This document shows, in pieces, positions 1 through 30,050 of a stretch of 30,107 bases of DNA. The position numbers and the translations under genes were made by a program. The stretch is from a virus (taxonomy: Duplodnaviria; Heunggongvirae; Uroviricota; Caudoviricetes), in IMG/VR virus record IMGVR_UViG_2698536535_000005, positions 1-30,107 of that record; one strand, given 5' to 3'. How positions within the stretch are numbered: position 1 is the stretch's first letter; every line of letters starts with the position of its first letter. The notes below the pieces were generated by a model. The model had not been told where the DNA came from and ran no database searches. It saw nothing but the letters and a program-made list of their open reading frames with translations.

Positions 1-1254
1 ATGCTGGAACAAATGGGCATTGCCGCGAAGCAAGCCTCGTATAAATTAGCGCAACTCTCCAGCCGCGAAAAAAATCGCGTACTGGAAAAAATAGCCGATG
101 AACTGGAAGCACAAAGCGAAATCATCCTCAACGCTAACGCGCAGGATGTTGCTGACGCGCGTGCCAACGGCCTTAGCGAAGCGATGCTTGACCGTCTGGC
201 ACTGACGCCCGCACGGCTGAAAGGCATTGCCGACGATGTGCGCCAGGTGTGTAACCTCGCCGATCCGGTGGGGCAGGTAATCGATGGCGGCGTACTGGAC
301 AGCGGCCTGCGTCTTGAGCGTCGTCGCGTACCGCTGGGGGTTATTGGCGTGATTTATGAAGCGCGCCCGAACGTGACGGTTGATGTCGCTTCGCTGTGCC
401 TGAAAACCGGTAATGCGGTGATCCTGCGCGGTGGCAAAGAAACGTGTCGCACTAACGCTGCAACGGTGGCGGTGATTCAGGACGCCCTGAAATCCTGCGG
501 CTTACCGGCGGGTGCCGTGCAGGCGATTGATAATCCTGACCGTGCGCTGGTCAGTGAAATGCTGCGTATGGATAAATACATCGACATGCTGATCCCGCGT
601 GGTGGCGCTGGTTTGCATAAACTGTGCCGTGAACAGTCGACAATCCCGGTGATCACAGGTGGTATAGGCGTATGCCATATTTACGTTGATGAAAGTGTAG
701 AGATCGCTGAAGCATTAAAAGTGATCGTCAACGCGAAAACTCAGCGTCCGAGCACATGTAATACGGTTGAAACGTTGCTGGTGAATAAAAACATCGCCGA
801 TAGCTTCCTGCCCGCATTAAGCAAACAAATGGCGGAAAGCGGCGTGACATTACACGCAGATGCAGCTGCACTGGCGCAGTTGCAGGCAGGCCCTGCGAAG
901 GTGGTTGCTGTTAAAGCCGAAGAGTATGACGATGAGTTTCTGTCATTAGATTTGAACGTCAAAATCGTCAGCGATCTTGACGATGCCATCGCCCATATTC
1001 GTGAACACGGCACACAACACTCCGATGCGATCCTGACCCGCGATATGCGCAACGCCCAGCGTTTTGTTAACGAAGTGGATTCGTCCGCTGTTTACGTTAA
1101 CGCCTCTACGCGTTTTACCGACGGCGGCCAGTTTGGTCTGGGTGCGGAAGTGGCGGTAAGCACACAAAAACTCCACGCGCGTGGCCCAATGGGGCTGGAA
1201 GCACTGACCACTTACAAGTGGATCGGCATTGGTGATTACACCATTCGTGCGTAA
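1..1254 (+). CDS. proA: gamma-glutamyl phosphate reductase (glutamate-5-semialdehyde dehydrogenase)
   Basis: Complete 417-aa ORF whose sequence I recognise as enterobacterial ProA; followed by thrW as in E. coli-type chromosomes; GC content by eye higher than downstream accessory DNA. Confidence 0.93.
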
Positions 1255-1368: not shown

Positions 1369-1444
1369 GCCGATATAGCTCAGTTGGTAGAGCAGCGCAT
1401 TCGTAATGCGAAGGTCGTAGGTTCGACTCCTATTATCGGCACCA
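1369..1444 (+). tRNA. thrW: tRNA-Thr (anticodon CGU)
   Basis: 76-nt sequence GCCGATATAGCTCAGTTGGTAGAGCAGCGCATTCGTAATGCGAAGGTCGTAGGTTCGACTCCTATTATCGGCACCA; acceptor stem GCCGATA/TATCGGC pairs, anticodon loop TTCGTAA gives CGT, encoded CCA end. Confidence 0.93.
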
Positions 1445-1610: not shown

Positions 1611-2825
1611 GTGAAACTCAATGCCCGTCAAATAGACACTGCCAAGCCAAAAGAGAAGGCTTACAAGCTGGCTGATGGTGGTGGTCTGTATCTCCTGGTA
1701 AAACCTAGTGGAGGAAAATACTGGCGCTTTAAATATCGTGTAGCTGGTAAAGAGAAGCTGTTAGCACTAGGTGTGTATCCTGAAGTTACCTTGGCTGATG
1801 CTCGTGCAAAACGTGAAGAAGCTAAAAGGGGTATCGCTGGGGGTATCGATCCGATGGAAGCGAAACGAGAGGAAAAGATTGCCCGGGAAACGCAGTTAAA
1901 CAATACCTTCAAAGATATTGCCCTTGAGTGGCACAGCAGCAAATTAAAAAAATGGTCTGCTGGTTATGCTTCAGATATCCTCGAAGCCTTCAACAAAGAT
2001 GTGTTCCCTTACATTGGCAAAAAACCAATCGCCGAAATCAAACCACTTGAACTTCTGAATGTGCTGCGACGCATCGAGGGGCGCGGTGCTACAGAAAAAG
2101 CCAAAAAAGTGAGGCAGCGGTGCGGGGAAGTTTTCCGCTATGCAATAGTCACTGGTCGCGCAGAGTATAACCCTGCCCCAGATCTTACTAGCGCGATGCA
2201 AGGCCATGAATCTAATCATTATCCTTTCCTCACAGCCAAAGAATTGCCTGATTTTTTCAAGGCATTGTCCAGTTACTCAGGAAGTGCATTGGTTGTTATG
2301 GCGGCTCGTCTACTGATTATCACTGGTTTGCGAACTGGCGAACTGCGCGGTGCATTATGGGATGAAATCGATCTCAACAAGGCTATCTGGGAGATACCTG
2401 CTTCACGGATGAAAATGCGTCGCCCTCATGTGGTGCCTTTGTCTAAGCAGGCTCTTTCTCTTATTGGGCAGATTAAAGAATTAACTGGTAATTATCCGCT
2501 TATGTTTCCCGGCCGTAATGATCCAAGGAAAACAATGAGCGAGGCTAGCATAAACCAAGTATTTAAACGCATCGGCTATAACGGAAAGGTTACTGGTCAT
2601 GGATTCCGGCACACCATGAGCACGATTTTACATGAGCAGGGCTATAACACCGCGTGGATAGAAACGCAGCTTGCACACGTTGATAAGAACTCAATTCGTG
2701 GCACGTACAATCATGCGCAATATCTGGACGGGCGGCGCGAGATGCTCCAGTGGTACGCCGACTATATGGATTCGCTCGAACATGGCGGTAACGTGGTGCA
2801 TGGCAAGTTCGGAAAATGTGGATGA
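1611..2825 (+). CDS. int: tyrosine recombinase, P4-type integrase (N-terminal arm-binding domain plus catalytic domain)
   Basis: 404-aa ORF, GTG start; N-terminus MKLNARQIDTAKPKEKAYKLADGGGLYLLVKPSGGKYWRFKYR is the typical P4-integrase N-terminal domain; C-terminal HGFRHT and trailing tyrosine region; lies directly next to the tRNA. Confidence 0.9.
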   Translation: MKLNARQIDTAKPKEKAYKLADGGGLYLLVKPSGGKYWRFKYRVAGKEKLLALGVYPEVTLADARAKREEAKRGIAGGIDPMEAKREEKIARETQLNNTFKDIALEWHSSKLKKWSAGYASDILEAFNKDVFPYIGKKPIAEIKPLELLNVLRRIEGRGATEKAKKVRQRCGEVFRYAIVTGRAEYNPAPDLTSAMQGHESNHYPFLTAKELPDFFKALSSYSGSALVVMAARLLIITGLRTGELRGALWDEIDLNKAIWEIPASRMKMRRPHVVPLSKQALSLIGQIKELTGNYPLMFPGRNDPRKTMSEASINQVFKRIGYNGKVTGHGFRHTMSTILHEQGYNTAWIETQLAHVDKNSIRGTYNHAQYLDGRREMLQWYADYMDSLEHGGNVVHGKFGKCG

Positions 2826-4253: not shown

Positions 4254-5054
4254 ATGAAATTTCCAAAAACGCCCGTACAGGGGCGGGGCTTCGTTCGGCC
4301 TGAAAACCAGAATCTGCAAAATTTCGGCGAAATTATCCCGATTATTTCCGGCGTTATTGGCGGGAGTGAAACCACTATTGTTAGCGCCAGAGCGTTACAT
4401 AAGGCGTTAGGTGTAGGGCGCGTTTTCCGTTCGTGGATCAAGGGGCGCATTGAAGAATACGGGTTCACGGAAGGCGTGGATTATGAGGTTGTTGAATATT
4501 TGAGCCGACCCGATCCGGTGAGCGCAAAATCTCGCCAGCAAACCGCTCTTGAGTACATCATCACAGTGAACATGGCGAAAGAACTGGCGATGGTCGAACG
4601 TACCGAACAGGGCCGCGCCGTTCGCCAGTACTTTATCAAATGCGAGGAGGAGCTACACAAGGTTGCGCCTGTTCGTTCCGCAGCGTTACGCCGGGAACTG
4701 AAAGCCCGTATCACAGTTGCCAGCTACTTTAAGCCAATGTGTGCCGCGCTGGAGGCGTACCGGGCTGAACTGGGTAAAAACACACTCCAGCACCACTACA
4801 CCACGGAAGCGAACATGCTGGCGCGTATCGTACTGGGTGGCATGACTGCAAAACAGTGGGCACTGGCGAACGGCATTACAGGCGAACCACGCGACCACAT
4901 GAGCACGTTGCAGCTTGAGCACCTTTCTTACCTTGAGCAGAGCAATATCACGCTGATTGAGTTAGGCCAGGACTACCACCAGCGGAAGGCTGAATTAATT
5001 CGTCTTTCGCAGCGTTGGTTAGCCCGTCGCATGGAGGAAAACAGCCATGTGTAA
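4254..5054 (+). CDS. phage antirepressor-like protein (AntA/AntB-type N-terminal domain, KilAC-like C-terminal region)
   Basis: 266-aa ORF with AGGAG Shine-Dalgarno; N-terminal segment TIVSARALHKALGVGRVFRSWIKGRIEEYGFTEGVDYEV resembles the AntA/AntB antirepressor domain; assignment by eye only. Confidence 0.5.
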   Translation: MKFPKTPVQGRGFVRPENQNLQNFGEIIPIISGVIGGSETTIVSARALHKALGVGRVFRSWIKGRIEEYGFTEGVDYEVVEYLSRPDPVSAKSRQQTALEYIITVNMAKELAMVERTEQGRAVRQYFIKCEEELHKVAPVRSAALRRELKARITVASYFKPMCAALEAYRAELGKNTLQHHYTTEANMLARIVLGGMTAKQWALANGITGEPRDHMSTLQLEHLSYLEQSNITLIELGQDYHQRKAELIRLSQRWLARRMEENSHV

Positions 5055-7352: not shown

Positions 7353-7643
7353 ATGAAAAAGAAAAATTCTGGCTTTACTGCCAGCGGCCTCTCTCGGCCT
7401 GAAATCCGCCCCGGTGATATTTCCCGGGACACCAGACGCGGGGGACGGGTGGTTATTCGTCACGTTACGCCAGGCAATATCACCTACCGCCGTGAGGCTT
7501 ACGAATATGACTGCGTAATGCCGCGCCGTCAGTTTGATCGTGATTTTATTCTGGTGGAAAACAAACAACAGGCAGTGGCGAGACGTGCAGCCACGAATAT
7601 TAAAAAAATCCGGGCAATGTTGGTTGCGGGAGGTAAGAAGTGA
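7353..7643 (+). CDS. hypothetical basic protein, early operon
   Basis: 96-aa ORF beginning 5 nt after the previous stop; its stop overlaps the GTG start of the primase gene. Confidence 0.5.
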   Translation: MKKKNSGFTASGLSRPEIRPGDISRDTRRGGRVVIRHVTPGNITYRREAYEYDCVMPRRQFDRDFILVENKQQAVARRAATNIKKIRAMLVAGGKK

Positions 7644-9445
7644 AAAACGCACCGAGTCTAAAATATCAGCCGAAGGATAAATTCACTGAGGTAATCATTT
7701 TTGCCGGGACGGATGCTTACGCCCATGCTCAACACTGGATTGAAAGTGAAGGACGAAAACACGGCGATAACGTGCCTCCTGTTTACCTGGGGCCAAAGCA
7801 ACTGGCAGACCTGGCGAATATCCGCATTATTGACGAGAAACGCCGTTTTGCGCGTGTCTATATCGCGGGGGAGATAGAGCCAATCCAGATCAATACTATC
7901 GCTGAAAAGCTGGCGCTGGCTGGCGTACAGGAGGCGAAATTATACAAAGGTATCACCGACCAGGAACCGGAGAACTGGCGCGACTACCTGCAACGGATCC
8001 GCGAACAGGCTGAGCACGGGGAAGTTTCAGTGATGAAATTAGCTACAAAAAATAGTGGTCTACCCAAGCCTGCATTAAATCAGATGGGAGCCAGCCAGAG
8101 AGGGGAAGTGTTACTTGAACATTATGGAGGAGCACTGGCGATAAATGATGATTCTGATGTAGTTCACCATTACAACGGAATTGTTTGGGAGCCTGTATCT
8201 GATAAGGAACTCCAGCGGTCTATGGCGAAGATTTTTATTGATGCCGAAATTAGTTATTCGCAAAACGCCATTAAATTTGCCGTAGAGACAATGAAATTGA
8301 GTCTACCTGTTATGGGGGGAGCGGACAGAAATCTTATTGGGTTCAGTAACGGTGTTTTTGATATCAGGACAGGAAATTTTCGGGAACACAACAAAAATGA
8401 CTGGTTGTTAAATGCCAGTGAATTACCGTTCAGCCCGCCAGAAGAGGGGGAAACGCTGGCAACACATGCGCCGAATTTCTGGAAGTGGTTGCGTCGTTCG
8501 GTGGCGGATAATGCTCGTAAAGCGGATCGCGTACTGGCGGCATTATTCATGGTACTGGCGAACCGGTACGACTGGCAGTTATTCCTTGAGGTAACGGGGC
8601 CGGGCGGAAGCGGTAAAAGTGTGATGGCGGAGATTTGTACCATGCTGGCGGGTAAGGCCAACACAGTATCGGCAAGCATGAAGGCTCTGGAAGACGCAAG
8701 GGAACGCGCGTTAGTAGTTGGCTTTTCGCTGATTATCATGCCGGATATGACTCGCTACGCTGGCGATGGTGCAGGAATTAAGGCAATTACTGGCGGCGAC
8801 AAGGTGGCAATTGATCCGAAACATAAAGCCCCCTACTCCACACGTATTCCGGCAGTAGTGCTTGCGGTAAACAATAACGCCATGTCATTCAGTGACCGAA
8901 GCGGGGGGATCTCGCGTCGTAGGGTGATATTTAATTTCTCTGAGGTCGTACCGGAGAACGAACGCGATCCCATGCTGGCGGAAAAGATAGAAGGCGAACT
9001 GGCGGTAGTGATTCGCCATTTGCTAACACGATTTACCGACCAGGACGAAGCTAAAAGACTACTTTATGAGCAGCAAAAATCAGAAGAAGCGCTGTTGATA
9101 AAGCGCGAAGGTGATTCACTGGTGGACTTTTGCGGCTATCTGATGTCGTTGGTTAAATGTGAAGGAATGATGGTGGGCAATGCGGAAATAGTGCCATTTA
9201 GCCCGAGGCGATACCTGTATCATGCTTATTTAGCCTATATGTCAGCGCATGGCCTGGGAAAACCAGTATCACTGACACGCTTTGGTACTGATATGCCAGG
9301 AGCTATGGCGGAATACGGAAAGGAGTATAAGCGGGCTAAATGCACTAAAGGCCCGGATAAAGGGCGAGTGATAACAAATGTTCTGTTAGATGATGATGCT
9401 GATGGCTGGTTGCCAGCAGCTACAGGGATTAACGACAGAACATAA
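7640..9445 (+). CDS. P4-family phage/plasmid primase-helicase (C-terminal P-loop NTPase domain)
   Basis: 601-aa ORF, GTG start after GGGAGG; Walker A VTGPGGSGKS and downstream Walker-B-like hydrophobic-DM stretch; overall resemblance to P4 alpha C-terminal / pri-rep proteins of satellites; iteron array immediately downstream. Confidence 0.75.
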   Translation: MKNAPSLKYQPKDKFTEVIIFAGTDAYAHAQHWIESEGRKHGDNVPPVYLGPKQLADLANIRIIDEKRRFARVYIAGEIEPIQINTIAEKLALAGVQEAKLYKGITDQEPENWRDYLQRIREQAEHGEVSVMKLATKNSGLPKPALNQMGASQRGEVLLEHYGGALAINDDSDVVHHYNGIVWEPVSDKELQRSMAKIFIDAEISYSQNAIKFAVETMKLSLPVMGGADRNLIGFSNGVFDIRTGNFREHNKNDWLLNASELPFSPPEEGETLATHAPNFWKWLRRSVADNARKADRVLAALFMVLANRYDWQLFLEVTGPGGSGKSVMAEICTMLAGKANTVSASMKALEDARERALVVGFSLIIMPDMTRYAGDGAGIKAITGGDKVAIDPKHKAPYSTRIPAVVLAVNNNAMSFSDRSGGISRRRVIFNFSEVVPENERDPMLAEKIEGELAVVIRHLLTRFTDQDEAKRLLYEQQKSEEALLIKREGDSLVDFCGYLMSLVKCEGMMVGNAEIVPFSPRRYLYHAYLAYMSAHGLGKPVSLTRFGTDMPGAMAEYGKEYKRAKCTKGPDKGRVITNVLLDDDADGWLPAATGINDRT

Positions 9446-9816: not shown

Positions 9817-10359
9817 ATGGGGCAAAGCATGACTAAGCTGACCATTAACAGAAAACCAAAAGGTATTTACGGCACGCCACAGAAAACGACGCAGGCGGCA
9901 CAGGAGCAGGATAAAACCACATCGGCGCATAAAGTGATGCCCGGTAACCAGAAAGCGCAGCAGAAGCCTACAGGGGCGACACCGTGGCGGCATATGACCA
10001 AACGCCAGCGCAAAAACCGCAGGCGCGTTAACCGCCTCACTGAGTTGTGGCCTGACTTATTCAGCCGGGAAGCACTGAAGCCGCTTAAGGTGGGGATATT
10101 CGACGACCTGATGCAGGATCTCGCCGTCAGGGGGCTGGCATTCGGGCCAGGGGCATTGCGTGCGACGCTGGCATCTTATGCGCAGTGTCCGCGCTATTAC
10201 CGCGCCTTAATGGCTGGTGGGGTACGCTACGACCTGAAAGGCCAGCCGTGCGGCGAGGTGACACCACAGGAACAACAGGACGCAGAAACGCGGCTGGTGG
10301 CGCTGAATGAGAAGCGCAAACGCCAGCGCCGGGCAGCAAAGGAGACAATAGGCGCATGA
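9817..10359 (+). CDS. FinO/ProQ-family RNA-binding protein
   Basis: Central region ALKPLKVGIFDDLMQDL...LRATLASYAQCPRYYRALMAGGVRYDLKGQPCGEVTPQE aligns by eye with the E. coli ProQ N-terminal FinO domain (PLKIGIF, LR.AL..Y, RY, R.DL.G.PCGE). Confidence 0.6.
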   Translation: MGQSMTKLTINRKPKGIYGTPQKTTQAAQEQDKTTSAHKVMPGNQKAQQKPTGATPWRHMTKRQRKNRRRVNRLTELWPDLFSREALKPLKVGIFDDLMQDLAVRGLAFGPGALRATLASYAQCPRYYRALMAGGVRYDLKGQPCGEVTPQEQQDAETRLVALNEKRKRQRRAAKETIGA

Positions 10360-14432: not shown

Positions 14433-15122
14433 ATGAACAAATCACCTACTGAGATAATTAATATGCTAAGCGATAAGTTCAATAGTAACTTTCGTGAATG
14501 GCAGGGCATACAAGATAAAAAATTAGATAAAGTAATTATCTCAATTTTCACTCTTAACACGATTGCTGAAATTTTGAATAAAAAGAAAACATCAGTTCAT
14601 CATGATGTTTGTATTAAAATTTTTAGTGAGATTATTGCTGATACGTCATCTTCTTTATATCTTTCTGCCTGTGCCATAGATAAACCAGCTAATATTGTTC
14701 TAAGGAGAGTTTTGGAACTAGGTGTCGCATCTATTTATCTTTGGGATATGCCTCATGTTGTATATTCTTGGAAAAATCATGATGAAGACTTAAGTTTCAG
14801 TGATATGTTGAAGCATATAACAAATCAAGGCTATATAGACTACTTCACAGAAAATGAGAAGATAGGAGGGAAAGTATGTGTTATTGATATGAGAAGAGCA
14901 CAGAAAATTTATGGACAATTAAGTGATATCGTTCATGGAAAAATAACCTCATTTGAAACTGATTTGCCTAATAAGTTCACTTTTGAAAGTGAAGATTGGG
15001 AGAGGTTCATAGGTCTGGCTGAGGTTGTTTTGGGTATGATAATTAATTCCAATATTGTTCGTCATAAGATAAGAAAAGAAGTGCTATCTTCATTTCCTAA
15101 ATCTAGTGAGGTAGTTTTATAA
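14433..15122 (+). CDS. hypothetical protein, component A of candidate two-gene system
   Basis: 229-aa ORF, strongly AT-rich; stop overlaps the start of the downstream ATPase gene (TAATG); no recognisable catalytic motif. Confidence 0.7.
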   Translation: MNKSPTEIINMLSDKFNSNFREWQGIQDKKLDKVIISIFTLNTIAEILNKKKTSVHHDVCIKIFSEIIADTSSSLYLSACAIDKPANIVLRRVLELGVASIYLWDMPHVVYSWKNHDEDLSFSDMLKHITNQGYIDYFTENEKIGGKVCVIDMRRAQKIYGQLSDIVHGKITSFETDLPNKFTFESEDWERFIGLAEVVLGMIINSNIVRHKIRKEVLSSFPKSSEVVL

Positions 15123-16852
15123 TGTCTATGTTAGACACTGAGTTATTACATGCAGCACGTACCGAAGATCTTGAGTTGAAACAGGTCAAACAACTGGCTG
15201 TTCTTGGTGAGTTTGAAAAAGATGTTGTAGCAAAACTAAAAATAGCGGGCTCTCATCTGATTCAGGGTGCCAGAGGAATTGGAAAGTCTATGCTTCTAAG
15301 AGCGGCAGAAGCTGAATTAGATAGTGATTTTCCTGTTAAAAAGATTGTGGGGGTATATGTTAATTTCAAAACCAGTACTTTGCTGGAAGGGGTTAAAGCT
15401 GACAATAAAAATGCATTTCAGATATGGGTAAGCGCTAAGTTACTACAAGCTTTGTACGAAAAGTTGATATTTTTAGATGTCATTCGTGACAATAATAGCA
15501 GTGATCCATTTCAAAGAATTTTTGGGATTAAAACTATAACTGGAATGAAAGATGCTCTACAATCTAAAATTCATCTGCTTCAAAGGTTATCAAGAGATCC
15601 TTCTTCAGATAAATTGTTGAATGAAATTGGAGAGGATTTTTTAGATAAGGTTAATGATATAAGTTATGTAAATGACATCATCAAGGAGATAATTCAAGAA
15701 TACCAACTTAATAGAATTGTTTTTTTATTTGATGAGGCTGCTCATACCTTTATACCAGAACAGCAGGAAATATTCTTCGAAATATTTAAATTGCTTCATG
15801 GCGGTAAAATTGCAGTTAAGGCGGCTGTATATCCGTCAATTACATCGTATGGTAAAAATTTTGAAGTTGGTCAAGATGCCATGATGATAAACCTCGGAGG
15901 ATACGAAACTGGAAATATTGGGCGGGAACGAACACGACGTTTATATCGTGATCTATTAGATAAACGGGTCACACAAGGAGCAGCAAAAAAGAGAATATTG
16001 GCTAAAGGTGATTTGCTAGATCAATGTATTCATCTTTCATCCGGAAACCCTAGAGCATTTCTCCATTTATTTAATAAAGTATATGAGAAAGGTTATACTG
16101 AAAGAGATCTTTTAACTTGCACTCAGGATTATGTCAATCAAGAATTATTACCTTATCATTTAGGGCTTTCAAAACGATTACCTAAGTATTCTCACCATGT
16201 TCGCATTGGACTTGATATTCTTAGGGAGTGTATTATCCCTGAGCTTAGATTGAAAAATAACAGAGAGAAAAAGACTCAAACCCAATCTGCTTTTTTTGTT
16301 CTTCCTCCCGTTATTTCTCCAAATCTTAGATTGTCTCTAGATTTGCTTTGTTATTCTGGTGTTCTTTCCAAGCAAGGGTCCGTGAAGATGTCTAATCGAA
16401 AATCGGGTCAGCGCTACATGGTTAATTTATCATTACTTTTCACTGAAAAAGCATTCGTATCTAATAAGTTCGGGGAGATAATAACACTATTATCTCTCGC
16501 TGATTATAAAGAATTTGGCGCAGCAGATTCTGAATTAGAGCGTTTTTTAGAAAAATTGAAAGAATCAGCTGATGAGTGTCAAACTTGTTCCGCTGAGTTA
16601 CCTGGAGATGCGAAGTTTTGTCCTAAGTGTGGGACACCTGTACCAACAAGGTCAATTGTAGGACAACTTCTTGATGATCCGGTTAGTTGCTTGTCAATTA
16701 GTAACGCAATATGCGACCGAATAAAAGAAACCTATCCTAAAGTGGGTGATATCGTTCACTGTTCGAGGGATGATCTGAAAAAAATACCGTACATTAAAAA
16801 TGTTAGGTCAAAAATAATCAAGAACGCAGCGGATGAATATATCTCAGGCTAA
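15122..16852 (+). CDS. Orc1/Cdc6-like AAA+ ATPase with C-terminal zinc ribbon and HhH (RNA polymerase alpha-CTD-like) domain, component B
   Basis: 576-aa ORF; Walker A GARGIGKS, Walker B IVFLFDEAAH, sensor-2-like SGNPRAF; C-terminal CQTC-x11-CPKC zinc ribbon; last ~60 aa resemble the RpoA alpha-CTD; GAGG Shine-Dalgarno; terminator downstream. Confidence 0.8.
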   Translation: MSMLDTELLHAARTEDLELKQVKQLAVLGEFEKDVVAKLKIAGSHLIQGARGIGKSMLLRAAEAELDSDFPVKKIVGVYVNFKTSTLLEGVKADNKNAFQIWVSAKLLQALYEKLIFLDVIRDNNSSDPFQRIFGIKTITGMKDALQSKIHLLQRLSRDPSSDKLLNEIGEDFLDKVNDISYVNDIIKEIIQEYQLNRIVFLFDEAAHTFIPEQQEIFFEIFKLLHGGKIAVKAAVYPSITSYGKNFEVGQDAMMINLGGYETGNIGRERTRRLYRDLLDKRVTQGAAKKRILAKGDLLDQCIHLSSGNPRAFLHLFNKVYEKGYTERDLLTCTQDYVNQELLPYHLGLSKRLPKYSHHVRIGLDILRECIIPELRLKNNREKKTQTQSAFFVLPPVISPNLRLSLDLLCYSGVLSKQGSVKMSNRKSGQRYMVNLSLLFTEKAFVSNKFGEIITLLSLADYKEFGAADSELERFLEKLKESADECQTCSAELPGDAKFCPKCGTPVPTRSIVGQLLDDPVSCLSISNAICDRIKETYPKVGDIVHCSRDDLKKIPYIKNVRSKIIKNAADEYISG

Positions 16853-16859
16853 AGAAAAG

Positions 16860-16883
16860 CCCCATGTAAATGGGGTTTTTTTT
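16860..16883 (+). terminator. intrinsic terminator
   Basis: CCCCAT-GTAA-ATGGGG hairpin (6-bp stem, 4-nt loop) followed by T8, 8 nt after the ATPase stop codon. Confidence 0.8.
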
Positions 16884-16892
16884 AATATGGGT

Positions 16893-17284
16893 TTATACTT
16901 TTAATGCCCGCCAATGCATTAATTCAATTCTTTGTATTAAATAATTAGATCTATTATAAGCTCTTCTGACTTCATTTCTATCAATATGAGATAATGACGT
17001 CTCTATTGCATCTGAATTAAACCCTGCTTCATTTAAAGTTTTACTCGCAATAGAACGCATCCCATGGTAACTAGCTTTCCACCGTAACCAATTCATTTAA
17101 GAGCAGCATTAGCCGTTTGACTATTCATTGGTTGCATAGGATCGTTTCTGCTAGGGAATACATATTCTCGATGACTACTAATAGGTTTCATCACATCCAG
17201 AAATTCTAATGCCTGTGGAAATAAATGAGCAATGTGTTTCCGGTTAGCCTTCATCCGTTCGGTGGGAATTGCGGAGGGCAGCAT
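16893..17284 (-). pseudogene. integrase remnant (C-terminal part of a P4-type tyrosine recombinase, frameshifted and 5'-truncated)
   Basis: Two adjacent minus-strand ORFs (16893..17096, 17093..17284) together align with the C-terminal ~130 aa of the integrase at 1611..2825 (FPSRNDP vs FPGRNDP; HIDRNEVRRAYNRSNYL vs HVDKNSIRGTYNHAQYL); no N-terminal half is present. Confidence 0.7.
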
Positions 17285-24991: not shown

Positions 24992-26020
24992 ATGATTATC
25001 GGAAATGAAGTGGTTGATCTTGCTCCACTGTTCGAATTAAACGACTCACGCAATTACCTACTGTCTACTCTGGATTTTACTGATCCTGTGCCTGTAGAAA
25101 GTCACAAAGTGGCTGTTTCCCAGCTTATCGAGAGCAATGAATCTCTGTTCAACCATCCTACAAGCCGTTTTAGCTCTGAGCATAACGTTACTAAGCGTGA
25201 GAACGGGGAAGAATATCTTATTGAAATCCCGTACTTTTTAAGGGAAGACCTGATCAAACCGCAGGACGTGCAAGGCAAACGCAAAGCCGGAAGCTCTATT
25301 GAAGAAACACTGCCGGATCTGTATGCGGAATATATCGCTAAACACAATGTTGCATTCCAGCGCACTAAAGAAAGCATCCTCGCGGCTTCTCTGTTCTCTG
25401 GCAAGACACACACCCCGAAAACTGACGATGTTCTGATCGATTACAGCACTCTGTTCGGTGTGTCTCCAATGACTGCAACCGTTGACGCATCCAGCACCAA
25501 CACAATGACCGTATTCAAGCAATTTGATCAGATGCATACGGATATGATTGCTAAGGCACAAAGCCAGGCTGCAACCATTGAGCGTGTTGTTGTGTTCTGT
25601 AAACCTGCGGCATTCAACGCTATTCGTTACAGCGTTGGCATGGTTAATGCGTTCCAGTATGCAAGCCCTGTAGACGATGCAAACGTGGTGTTTAATGTGC
25701 GTTCTCTGCTGCCTGGTGTAACTACTTTCACCATTCCAGGAACTAACATTGACCTGATCAAAGTGACTGATCCGCTGCTGCTGGCACATATGACCGCTGA
25801 CGCTGTAGCTATTCCTAAACTTGCTAAGGGGGCAGGTGTTTACCAAGCTATTTTTGGTGCGCCTTCCAGTTCATTCGATCTGCTGTCTCAAGGCGCTAAA
25901 GAGTATTACAGCTATGCTTTCGAATCGAATCGCGGCGACGCAGTGCACGTAGTGACCGAGAATAGCTCGCTTGTGGTTAACCACGGTGTTGGCTTCTCTG
26001 TGCAGATCACAGTAGCGTAA
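24992..26020 (+). CDS. hypothetical protein, possible major capsid-like protein (speculative)
   Basis: 342-aa ORF with strong AAGGAA Shine-Dalgarno; size and position after a ~120-aa gene resemble the lambda gpD/gpE arrangement; similarity to gpE not demonstrable by eye. Confidence 0.55.
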   Translation: MIIGNEVVDLAPLFELNDSRNYLLSTLDFTDPVPVESHKVAVSQLIESNESLFNHPTSRFSSEHNVTKRENGEEYLIEIPYFLREDLIKPQDVQGKRKAGSSIEETLPDLYAEYIAKHNVAFQRTKESILAASLFSGKTHTPKTDDVLIDYSTLFGVSPMTATVDASSTNTMTVFKQFDQMHTDMIAKAQSQAATIERVVVFCKPAAFNAIRYSVGMVNAFQYASPVDDANVVFNVRSLLPGVTTFTIPGTNIDLIKVTDPLLLAHMTADAVAIPKLAKGAGVYQAIFGAPSSSFDLLSQGAKEYYSYAFESNRGDAVHVVTENSSLVVNHGVGFSVQITVA

Positions 26021-28293: not shown

Positions 28294-28971
28294 ATGGCAA
28301 TGGGTCCGTTAACCATTGGTCGCCCGACTGAGGCGAAAATCAACAGCACAAGCAACGATAGCAACGGTAGAACAACTAAAGGGGGTAACGGCTTTGCGAT
28401 CATTACCTCTAACCTCGGCAGTGGTGCAAATGCTGCTTACAATGACTACCAGGCATTATCATTTGATAGCGTGGAATCGACGAAAATTAGCCGAAATGCA
28501 GACGTTACAAGCTATGCCGTCGAATCAGGATCAGAAGTTAGTGATCATGTTCAAATACGGAATAACAAGTTCACATTACAGGGGCGTATCTCTGAAACAG
28601 TATTGAAGCTCAATCCCGATATGATTAAGAATGCGGGAATTAACGGCAATAGACGTATGCTTATGCTTGAATACCTAAATCAGTTGATGGACAGTCGCCA
28701 ACCTTTCCTACTTGTCACTGAGTTAAAAAATTATGACAACGTTGTGTTAGTTGGCATGTCTTACGAAGAAGAAGCAAGCGAAAGCCTATTGTTTACTCTT
28801 GATTTTGAGCAAATCCGTCTTGTCTCTAAAGCAACTACAAGCGCAATTGCGGTAAAAACAGCACCAAATAAATCTGTAGGAGGTCAGGTTAAAATGCAGG
28901 TAAATACAACAGAACAGAAAAATCAAAAAAGCCCAGGGCAAGACGTTGTAACGCCAGTATTTAAACAATAG
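28294..28971 (+). CDS. hypothetical protein
   Basis: 225-aa ORF with AAGGA Shine-Dalgarno; convergent with the downstream integrase. Confidence 0.55.
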   Translation: MAMGPLTIGRPTEAKINSTSNDSNGRTTKGGNGFAIITSNLGSGANAAYNDYQALSFDSVESTKISRNADVTSYAVESGSEVSDHVQIRNNKFTLQGRISETVLKLNPDMIKNAGINGNRRMLMLEYLNQLMDSRQPFLLVTELKNYDNVVLVGMSYEEEASESLLFTLDFEQIRLVSKATTSAIAVKTAPNKSVGGQVKMQVNTTEQKNQKSPGQDVVTPVFKQ

Positions 28972-29051: not shown

Positions 29052-30050
29052 CTATAGCGTTGTTTTACGCCTTAAATTTGATTTTTTATTGATTGATAAG
29101 CCTTTCTCTATTTCAGGGTAGCGTAAAAGCTCAATATATTTTTTAAGCTCTACTGGAGAAGCTGCATTCTTGCTATATGTGCGGAATGTTTCTGTATTGC
29201 CGCGCTGATGGCCCAAAATTAAAGCTATGCGGTCCTCTGGAATTTGATTTCGATCAAGAAGCTGTGCTACTCCGTGTCTCAGAGAATGAAACACTTTCCT
29301 TTCTGTTCCCTTTTCCCCTAAAGCCTTTCGTTTAGCTCTTGTAAATCGTTGTGTATGCCACGTAGAGCGTTTACCGTCAGCACGTTCTGTAATGCTGGCG
29401 TGATAGAACAAAAAGCCATTGTGAGGCTTTTCACGAAGAGATAACACCAATGGAGTGATAAGGCTATGCACAGGCACAAGACGTGCCGCAGCTTTCGTTT
29501 TTCCCTGTGTGATTTCAAAACACAGCACACCTTCGATCTCTTTCACATCGTCTATTGTGAGACTTGCTATCTCATTGATCCGCATACCTGTATATAAACC
29601 GATAAGACACAAAGCCGTCATTTCTTTGTTTTCTGCTGAATTACCGGAAAATACTTGCAACACCTGCAATAGCTCTTTGTTAGAAAATGCCTCGTAGCTC
29701 TCTCTACTTTGTGCCACATCAAGCCTATGCCCTCGCCAGGGGGAGAGCGCCCTTTCTGGCGCATCGTGGTAACGTGATGAAGCTAATTCCCATAGCTGGG
29801 CCATTGGGCTGATATAATTTGCAATTGATTGTTGTGAAAGAGTTTTTTGCATATGTTCAATCCAGCCTGTAACAGTGGTGCGGCTTACATCTTGCAATGC
29901 AATATCAGGCTTTTTACGGTAGGAGAGAAACATCTCTACCGCTTTTCTTGCCTTAGCTAAAGTGGCTGGCTTCTTCTTCGTGCTGTTAATTGTCAGGTAG
30001 ATTTCAAGAATTTTAAGCAATGACGGACACGAAGACGCTGTATCTTGCAT
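29052..30050 (-). CDS. tyrosine recombinase / phage integrase (different family from the thrW-proximal integrase)
   Basis: 332-aa minus-strand ORF; C-terminal catalytic region with HSLRHGVAQLL (H-x-x-R) and a downstream tyrosine; lacks the long P4-type N-terminal arm-binding domain. Confidence 0.85.
   Translation of the reverse strand: MQDTASSCPSLLKILEIYLTINSTKKKPATLAKARKAVEMFLSYRKKPDIALQDVSRTTVTGWIEHMQKTLSQQSIANYISPMAQLWELASSRYHDAPERALSPWRGHRLDVAQSRESYEAFSNKELLQVLQVFSGNSAENKEMTALCLIGLYTGMRINEIASLTIDDVKEIEGVLCFEITQGKTKAAARLVPVHSLITPLVLSLREKPHNGFLFYHASITERADGKRSTWHTQRFTRAKRKALGEKGTERKVFHSLRHGVAQLLDRNQIPEDRIALILGHQRGNTETFRTYSKNAASPVELKKYIELLRYPEIEKGLSINKKSNLRRKTTL

Follow-up and report, generated by a model that had tools for sequence, protein, structure and literature searches.

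The locus considered here raises the question of what kind of domain has been joined to the C-terminus of an ATPase, and what such a protein would do on a mobile element. The locus lies in a window of 30,107 nucleotides (the whole stretch of DNA that was analysed; positions 1 to 30,107 of the Caudoviricetes record IMGVR_UViG_2698536535_000005 in IMG/VR), in which positions 16570-16852 encode residues 484-576 and the stop codon of a 576-aa ATPase (the query); no second open reading frame (ORF) of at least 60 aa overlaps this segment in the ORF list of the window. An earlier note on this DNA had quoted two peptides from the ORF, both of which are present in the sequence as described, and had read them as a zinc ribbon followed by a helix-hairpin-helix (HhH) tail that parallels the C-terminal domain of the RNA polymerase alpha subunit (alpha-CTD). 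The tail is very likely an alpha-CTD-type double HhH domain, placed next to a C4 zinc ribbon, and it is a constant element of a rare two-gene module (the cassette) that has spread horizontally and occupies a defence hotspot. At a rough probability of 55%, this module is an uncharacterised anti-phage system, in which the ATPase would bind nucleic acid, the tail would be its DNA-contacting head, and the partner protein encoded upstream would be the effector; a defence role as such appears fairly probable, and for DNA as the ligand of the tail we put the chances at evens.

An AlphaFold2 model of the tail (68 residues, 46 sequences; mean pLDDT 82) comprises five helices (residues 512-518, 528-537, 541-545, 549-552 and 558-575), and in this model two consecutive HhH motifs pack into a compact bundle, about 60 residues long, which can be superposed on alpha-CTDs of known structure. 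When the model was compared with solved structures, rank 1 was taken by the alpha-CTD of Bacillus subtilis RNA polymerase (1z3e_B; score 7.5, rmsd 1.7 Å over 56 of 67 residues), with the N-terminal HhH domain of RAD51C (6.4), the alpha-CTD of Thermus thermophilus (5.6), the N-terminal HhH domain of RAD51B (5.6) and the alpha-CTD of Helicobacter pylori (5.4) also among the matches. The Foldseek list for the tail was led by chains of Escherichia coli RpoA (26% identity over 58 columns), and isolated alpha-CTD structures also stood at its top (TM 0.64/0.65 to 1z3e_B); given the short domain and the non-significant E-values, the ranking alone was used.

For profile comparison with hhalign, the target was an alignment of four alpha-CTDs, each verified against PDB sequences. 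A profile of the close-family tails matched this target with 60.7% probability (P 8e-5), and a profile that included distant members matched it with 96% probability (P 3-6e-9 over 58 columns), the latter alignment covering both hairpins (tail residues 514-571 against residues 250-308 of E. coli alpha); the parallel to RpoA that had been drawn by eye is thus beyond chance. A distant relative (P0147) passes the gathering threshold of PF03118 (26.3 against 23.8 bits), and the Clostridium butyricum copy reaches 21.5 bits against the same cut-off. With the query tail, HHH_5 (E 0.17) is the sole match listed in Pfam at E-values up to 10; among 46 close tails, HHH_5 was matched by five (best E 6.5e-4), RNA_pol_A_CTD by five below threshold (best E 0.0077), and HHH_2 by three. 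The C-terminal HhH region of DisA also matches the query below threshold (E 0.18), and a search of PDB sequences with the close-tail profile gave nothing significant, the best match being the (HhH)2 domain of Hef (E 0.15). Evidence for homology from single sequences is weak but consistent; an alpha-CTD match, on which the earlier proposal depended, was found with Foldseek, with hhalign and, through P0147, with Pfam. Since the N-terminal 470 residues form an ORC/Cdc6-type ATPase, the tail is to be called alpha-CTD-like and not an alpha subunit.

The likeness to alpha-CTD was examined residue by residue in the hhalign register, with conservation counted in an alignment of 38 ATPase homologues (down to 54% identity). 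Like alpha-CTD (PF03118; PDB 1z3e_B, 3k4g, 1lb2), the tail is a compact unit of about 60 residues that follows a flexible linker and contains two HhH motifs, and the landmarks shared by the two are the L-x-L/I-S before helix 1 (L260-x-L262-T263 of E. coli alpha-CTD aligned to L524-x-I526-S527, conserved), the G-D of hairpin 1 (G279-D280 to G542-D543; 38/38 and 35/38) and the I-K of the last helix (I303-K304 to I566-K567; 36/38 and 38/38). Unlike alpha-CTD, the tail is joined through a zinc ribbon to an AAA+ ATPase and not to the alpha N-terminal domain, its hairpin 1 is shorter by one residue, and it has an invariant C-terminal E-Y-I-S-G of its own. The '265 determinant' of alpha-CTD (R265, N268, C269, G296, K298, S299) is not retained; the counterparts of C269, G296 and S299 are conserved but differ in residue (R533, 34/38; K559, 38/38; R562, 38/38), and in the position of E286 (287 determinant) the tail has an invariant arginine, R549. 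As aligned, then, the structural landmarks of alpha-CTD are shared by the tail and its functional determinants are not. On the face that corresponds to the DNA contacts of alpha-CTD, the tail carries conserved basic residues of its own (R533, K559, R562, K567).

The second HhH motif with the last helix is among the most conserved stretches of the ATPase (entropy 0.64 bits; whole protein 1.0), and the first HhH motif, which carries the invariant G542 in its hairpin, is the more variable half of the tail (1.45 bits). Invariant residues of the tail include R549, I558, K559, R562, S563, K567, N568, S575 and G576. The C-terminus follows the pattern E-[YFH]-[IVLM]-[SA]-G-COOH (residues 572-576, 16835-16849), which is near-universal in the wider family, even at about 25% identity (tails of L057-L062 and P0133-P0168), and could be a docking peptide.

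The earlier note had given the zinc ribbon as CxxC-x11-CxxC; the C4 ribbon stands, but its spacing is x10 (C486-x2-C489-x10-C500-x2-C503). The ribbon matches PF13240 (Zn_Ribbon_1) with 27.8 bits in the whole protein and 31.1 bits in the C-terminal fragment (cut-off 25), and its four cysteines, which the note had named as a possible weak point, are invariant in 38 of 38 aligned homologues; the CxxC...CxxC pattern is present in 119 of the 120 best homologues. The ribbon is beyond chance and is a predicted metal site. The lone homologue that lacks the pattern (P0080, from ENA) ends in ...LSLIHISEPTRPY, a translated Nextera adapter, and is an assembly chimera, not a natural ribbon-less variant. 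As the C. butyricum megaplasmid branch (26.6% identity) has kept the tail and has no ribbon, the family can dispense more easily with the ribbon than with the tail.

The rest of the protein is a genuine AAA+ ATPase of the ORC/Cdc6 clade, in agreement with its earlier designation as an AAA+ ATPase: residues 38-286 match PF24389 (ORC-CDC6-like) with 51.7 bits against a cut-off of 27, the Walker A and Walker B motifs are intact, and the model of the core is structurally similar to Cdc6/Orc1. The closest folds of the core model were those of Cdc6/ORC, TnsC, MuB, BrxC and DnaA, all of them DNA-loading switches. The AlphaFold2 model of the full-length protein (pLDDT 62 overall, below 50 for residues 353-473) is confident in the ATPase core and was used solely to classify this core, the packing of the tail being unreliable in it. 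Residues 353-470 are the best-conserved large region (entropy 0.84 bits) and probably form a winged helix, as suggested by the distant relative P0151, whose homologous stretch matches the C-terminal part of PF24389 (positions 418-553); the fold is unconfirmed by the full-length model.

The fusion had been described as unusual, which is accurate in that it is rare in sequence space and inaccurate in that it is no one-off: a ribbon and tail on the ATPase are the constant architecture of a whole family. When 1.84 billion representative proteins were searched with the tail profile, just 48 matched at E ≤ 0.001, nearly all of the same architecture or fragments of it, and the tail domain is therefore almost confined to this ATPase family. 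Two proteins from the representative search were put aside, namely a low-complexity repeat protein (P0144, discarded) and a generic triple-HhH protein (P0167). In 185,579 species, represented by one genome each, the ATPase family was found at 40 loci, which belong to the Proteobacteria, Campylobacterota, Nitrospirota, Desulfobacterota, Acidobacteriota, Verrucomicrobiota, Cyanobacteria, Bacteroidota and Bacillota and to one Methanophagales archaeon. Every complete ATPase of these loci has the tail, and at 39 of them the gene immediately upstream, in the same orientation, is a homologue of the partner gene; both features also hold in branches at 25-40% identity. The distribution is patchy across phyla at 50-70% identity, and the cassette is present in just four of 5426 complete E. 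coli genomes.

The exception to the pairing is the copy on a Limimaricola variabilis plasmid (L057 4872-7427), in which ribbon and tail are kept without the usual upstream partner; a different protein of 274 aa is encoded downstream, which has a sub-threshold HEPN_RiboL-PSP match, and the locus lies beside ParDE and HipA toxin-antitoxin genes. This branch is a possible case of effector swapping. The C. butyricum branch (L058 4268-6650) keeps both the tail and a DUF5677-like upstream partner (hhalign 97.4%).

In the window, the start codon of the ATPase gene overlaps the stop codon of the upstream 229-codon ORF (TAATG), ten bases past a GTGAGG motif, and a hairpin with a T-run follows the ATPase gene; the pair is therefore a single operon with translational coupling, and in other genomes, too, the partner and ATPase genes show overlaps or gaps of 0-4 nt. 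The partner scores 16.3 bits against PF18928, under the threshold of 27.1; among 29 members of the partner family, PF18928 matches 23 at E-values up to 1 (best E 5.7e-6), and some homologues have a precomputed PF18928 match. Its invariant polar residues are E66, D70, R91, R92, E95, D105, H108, H128, H168, K170, E175 and R210, and of the two proteins it is the faster to evolve (entropy 1.61, ATPase 1.0). An identity as a HEPN RNase was considered for its LRRvLELG and VHGK motifs and for the weak HEPN match of the Limimaricola partner, and is not supported, as the partner has no R-x4-6-H motif and no Pfam HEPN match and is unrelated to the Limimaricola protein (hhalign 0.2%).

The cassette has a GC content of 31-36% in surroundings of about 50%, and in the window it is end cargo, at the far end of an island that is inserted at tRNA-Thr(CGT) and differs from the P4-like satellites of its relatives. 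A canonical P4-like satellite of Citrobacter freundii, with genes for alpha primase, Phage_ASH, AlpA, Ogr_Delta and Psu, carries a copy of the cassette at 83% identity, and nothing else lies between its psu and integrase genes; in a psu-less satellite of Serratia marcescens, the cassette occupies the equivalent place between the Ogr/Delta gene and the integrase. The psu-int interval of P4-like satellites is a described anti-phage hotspot (PMC9122126; PMC11754643), and this position of the cassette is strong contextual support for a role in defence. Elsewhere the neighbours of the cassette comprise recombinases, transposases, ParDE/HipA and an NB-ARC/NACHT protein.

From these data we propose that the module, as cargo of mobile elements including those with the psu-int hotspot, acts as an anti-phage system. 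In this model, the ATPase is a switch that depends on ATP and binds nucleic acid, most probably DNA, by its initiator-type core and winged helix. Further contacts, to the backbone or the minor groove, would come from the zinc ribbon and from the HhH head on its tether, which would use K559, R562, R533 and K567 much as alpha-CTD supplies DNA contacts for RNA polymerase. Once bound to DNA and loaded with ATP, the ATPase would turn on or recruit the DUF5677 partner, the faster-evolving of the two proteins, as effector. The proposal of DNA binding is based on the conserved basic residues at or near the DNA-facing positions of alpha-CTD (R533, K559 and R562, with K567 nearby) and on the DNA-loading switches that are the nearest folds of the ATPase. 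Pairs of a zinc finger and HhH motifs occur in DNA-binding proteins such as LigA and RecR, where a C4 zinc module lies beside HhH motifs and DNA binding is not sequence-specific; the order of the domains and the number of HhH motifs differ from those of the tail.

Several observations weigh against this proposal or parts of it. The key minor-groove residue of alpha-CTD, R265, aligns to the variable A529, and close mimicry of alpha-CTD by the tail is for this reason unlikely, and DNA binding is plausible; N268 likewise aligns to a variable position (D532), and K298 to V561 (37/38). In the query subfamily, an invariant lysine (K559) replaces the glycine that the canonical HhH motif, h-x-x-h-x-G-h-G-x-x-x-A-x-x-h-h, would have in hairpin 2, at a position where the distant members P0151, P0157 and L062 keep I-G or G-I-G. 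All Foldseek E-values of the tail against the PDB were above 0.1 and none was significant, and the query tail is below the threshold of PF03118 (23.8 bits) and of every HhH family in Pfam. For the partner, no solved structural relative was found in a search for one, and a DUF5677 gene that was assayed alone in Enterococcus is outside the ORFs reported as protective (10.1101/2025.10.07.681051). Neither gene was recognised as part of a known system in PADLOC 2.0, NCBIfam or PHROGs, in which the P-loop region gave weak matches (PDC-S01, E 0.011; CARF_STK_AAA, E 0.009; DS41_1, 27 bits against a cut-off of 370); the cassette was not found by tblastn in 50,697 phage records; and in several genomes it lies among ordinary genes, without mobile or defence neighbours.

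The variable position at R265 also favours what we regard as the main rival, in which the tail is a protein-binding surface that docks through its last helix and C-terminal peptide within the complex and contacts no nucleic acid; its target would be the DUF5677 partner, the ATPase core (autoinhibition) or a neighbouring protomer (oligomerisation). The conservation maximum in the last helix and at the extreme C-terminus fits a docking peptide better than a face that contacts DNA, and alpha-CTD itself is mainly a hub of protein-protein interactions. We nevertheless consider docking unlikely, since the invariant K559, R562 and K567 lie at the hairpin and at the N-terminus of the helix, where HhH motifs touch phosphates, and the retention of the tail in the Limimaricola branch, with its unrelated partner, argues against docking that is specific for DUF5677. 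That the likeness to alpha-CTD is due to chance or to a convergent small helical bundle, and hence uninformative, is very improbable: the domain is short and its Foldseek E-values are not significant, but alpha-CTD was ranked first by two structure-comparison methods, the profile-profile match was obtained in a single pre-specified comparison, a family member exceeds a curated threshold, and the independent weak matches (HHH_5, HHH_2, Hef, DisA C-terminus) all belong to the HhH superfamily.

Ogr/Delta activators, like many phage factors, act through the alpha-CTD of RNA polymerase, and the cassette-carrying satellites encode a zinc-finger activator of this family (L008 6595-6849, L055 6071-6316). 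With alpha-CTD as the closest solved fold, the tail might accordingly be an integrated decoy of the host alpha-CTD, bound by phage or satellite proteins that seize or modify alpha-CTD and thereby trigger the ATPase. Other defence systems of bacteria, Panoptes among them, already offer examples of decoy logic. This reading is improbable, as the determinants of alpha-CTD have been lost and the tail is constant across phyla: the identity to alpha-CTD is merely 22-26%, R265, N268 and K298 are not kept, an arginine takes the place of E286, and the tail is near-identical from Proteobacteria to Firmicutes and does not track the host alpha-CTD; without R265, it also cannot be a target of R265 ADP-ribosylation. 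The more elaborate form of this reading, in which the ATPase would be a guard akin to nucleotide-binding leucine-rich repeat (NLR) proteins and would fire once the decoy is seized by a phage transcription factor or by an enzyme that modifies alpha, in parallel to the integrated decoys of plant NLRs, appears just as doubtful. Finally, the module might serve the maintenance, replication or target selection of mobile elements, as an initiator-like or TnsC/MuB-like DNA loader with an accessory protein, and have no part in immunity; its nearest structural relatives include Cdc6/ORC, TnsC, MuB and DnaA, and it is found on islands and plasmids and beside recombinases. Here the DUF5677 gene is the only consistently linked gene, with no transposase, replication origin or partner helicase, the carrier satellites already own a primase-helicase, the module lies in a variable cargo slot and not in the conserved backbone, and several copies are in plain chromosomal settings, which leaves little probability for such a function.

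The preferred reading, an anti-phage module with a DNA-contacting ATPase, can be compared with several known systems. With ORC/Cdc6 (Orc1), 'archaeal ATPase', TnsC and MuB the ATPase shares the AAA+ core, Walker A/B, the GNPR sensor-2-like motif, the lid and the probable winged helix; unlike ORC/Cdc6, TnsC and MuB, it has an extra zinc ribbon and HhH head, is paired with DUF5677, and is not linked to MCM, transposases or origins. The BREX, RADAR and Avs systems have ORC/Cdc6-type ATPases at their centre, and BrxC of BREX is a defence protein of this type with accessory DNA-binding domains, as the present ATPase would be. A helical domain of the BREX kinase PglW has been described as similar to alpha-CTD (PMC12839542), and a domain of this kind is thus already known from an anti-phage protein; in PglW it follows a kinase and not an ATPase. 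The cassette is without the BREX partners (methyltransferase, PglZ, BrxA/B/L), and its protein is far smaller. PARIS (AriA/AriB; PMC9122126) occupies the same psu-int slot, falls in the same size class of about 2.4 kb, and has the same logic of an ATPase with a small partner; it differs in the type of ATPase (ABC-type AriA, against ORC/Cdc6 AAA+ here) and in the partner (DUF4435/Toprim, against DUF5677 here), and, unlike PARIS, the present cassette is a candidate by context, without a PADLOC match.

The features of the module and of the window are collected in Table 1. The window consists of tandem mobile elements at tRNA-Thr(CGT), just past a gene of the aldehyde-dehydrogenase family; a first, satellite-like island is followed by a second, phage-like stretch. 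Directly after the cassette lie two short ORFs that are fragments of a tyrosine integrase (frameshifted and incomplete in RefSeq) and that suggest an older integration event at the same site. An intact serine recombinase of 185 aa (Resolvase and HTH) is encoded 2 kb downstream of the cassette; recombinase genes are likewise present near two other copies of the cassette, with a resolvase immediately downstream in Desulfobacter (L005 8041-8616) and a large serine recombinase upstream in C. butyricum (L058 2547-4130). Serine recombinases have been proposed as markers of defence genes in a preprint (10.1101/2025.10.07.681051). Three further ORFs of the window gave no match in Pfam or PADLOC.

Table 1. 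Features of the two-gene module and of its surroundings, with positions in the window.
Feature	Position	Strand	Basis or remark
Partner gene, 229 aa, DUF5677-like, putative effector or adaptor	14433..15122	+	PF18928 family matches
Translational coupling: Shine-Dalgarno-like GTGAGG, then TAATG stop/start overlap	15106..15124	+	Read from the sequence
576-aa ORC/Cdc6-type AAA+ ATPase with C-terminal zinc ribbon and alpha-CTD-like tail	15122..16852	+	ORF
Walker A, G49-A-R-G-I-G-K55-S56	15266..15289	+	G49, R51, G52, G54, K55, S56 invariant
Walker B plus next residues, L202-F-D-E-A-A-H208	15725..15745	+	All seven residues invariant
G308-N-P-R311, which we take to be sensor 2 of the ORC/Cdc6 'GDAR' type from knowledge of that family	16043..16054	+	All four residues invariant
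Probable winged-helix region, residues 353-470	16178..16531	+	Conservation; match of relative P0151
C4 zinc ribbon, residues 486-503	16577..16630	+	PF13240 above threshold; Cys invariant
Short variable linker, residues 504-514	16631..16663	+	Entropy 1.34 bits (whole protein 1.0)
Alpha-CTD-like double HhH domain, residues 515-576	16664..16849	+	Structure and profile comparison
First HhH: helix 528-537, hairpin with G542, helix 541-545	16703..16756	+	AlphaFold2 helices
Second HhH and C-terminal helix (549-575), ending in invariant E-Y-I-S-G-COOH	16766..16849	+	Conservation
Terminator of the two-gene operon: GC-rich hairpin (CCCCATGTAAATGGGG), then T-run	16860..16884	.	Seen in the sequence; same hairpin listed on the minus strand in a scan
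Aldehyde-dehydrogenase-family gene	1..1254		
tRNA-Thr(CGT)	1369..1444		
First island: int	1611..2825		Satellite-like
First island: AntA-like	4254..5054		Satellite-like
ORF, 435 aa	5047..6354		No Pfam or PADLOC match
First island: D5_N/DUF5906 primase-helicase	7640..9445		Satellite-like
First island: ProQ/FinO	9817..10359		Satellite-like
ORF, 380 aa	10778..11920		No Pfam or PADLOC match
Tyrosine integrase fragments (two short ORFs)	16893..17284	-	Frameshifted, incomplete in RefSeq
Serine recombinase, 185 aa	19006..19563	-	Resolvase and HTH
Second stretch: major capsid E	24992..26020		Phage-like
ORF, 613 aa	26405..28246	+	No Pfam or PADLOC match
Second stretch: Dit-like tail protein	28294..28971		Phage-like
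Second stretch: integrase	29052..30050	-	Phage-like

A literature search by RefSeq protein accessions, DUF5677 and alpha-CTD decoy gave no description of the module. The kind of system is familiar, but neither this module with its DUF5677 partner nor an ATPase with an alpha-CTD-like tail is described in the literature that was searched. If the defence role is true, a compact two-gene system of 2.4 kb would be added to the catalogue, spread widely but thinly in bacteria and with one archaeal copy, and the architecture of its sensor ATPase would be that of a replication initiator, with the addition of a domain that is otherwise almost exclusive to RNA polymerase. The module would then be a simple test case for how ORC/Cdc6-type switches (BrxC, RdrA) recognise invaders, as the tail, the ribbon and the winged helix are separately deletable and natural variants without the ribbon or with another partner exist. 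If, on the other hand, the tail binds phage proteins that target alpha-CTD, a new sensing principle would be represented by this family.

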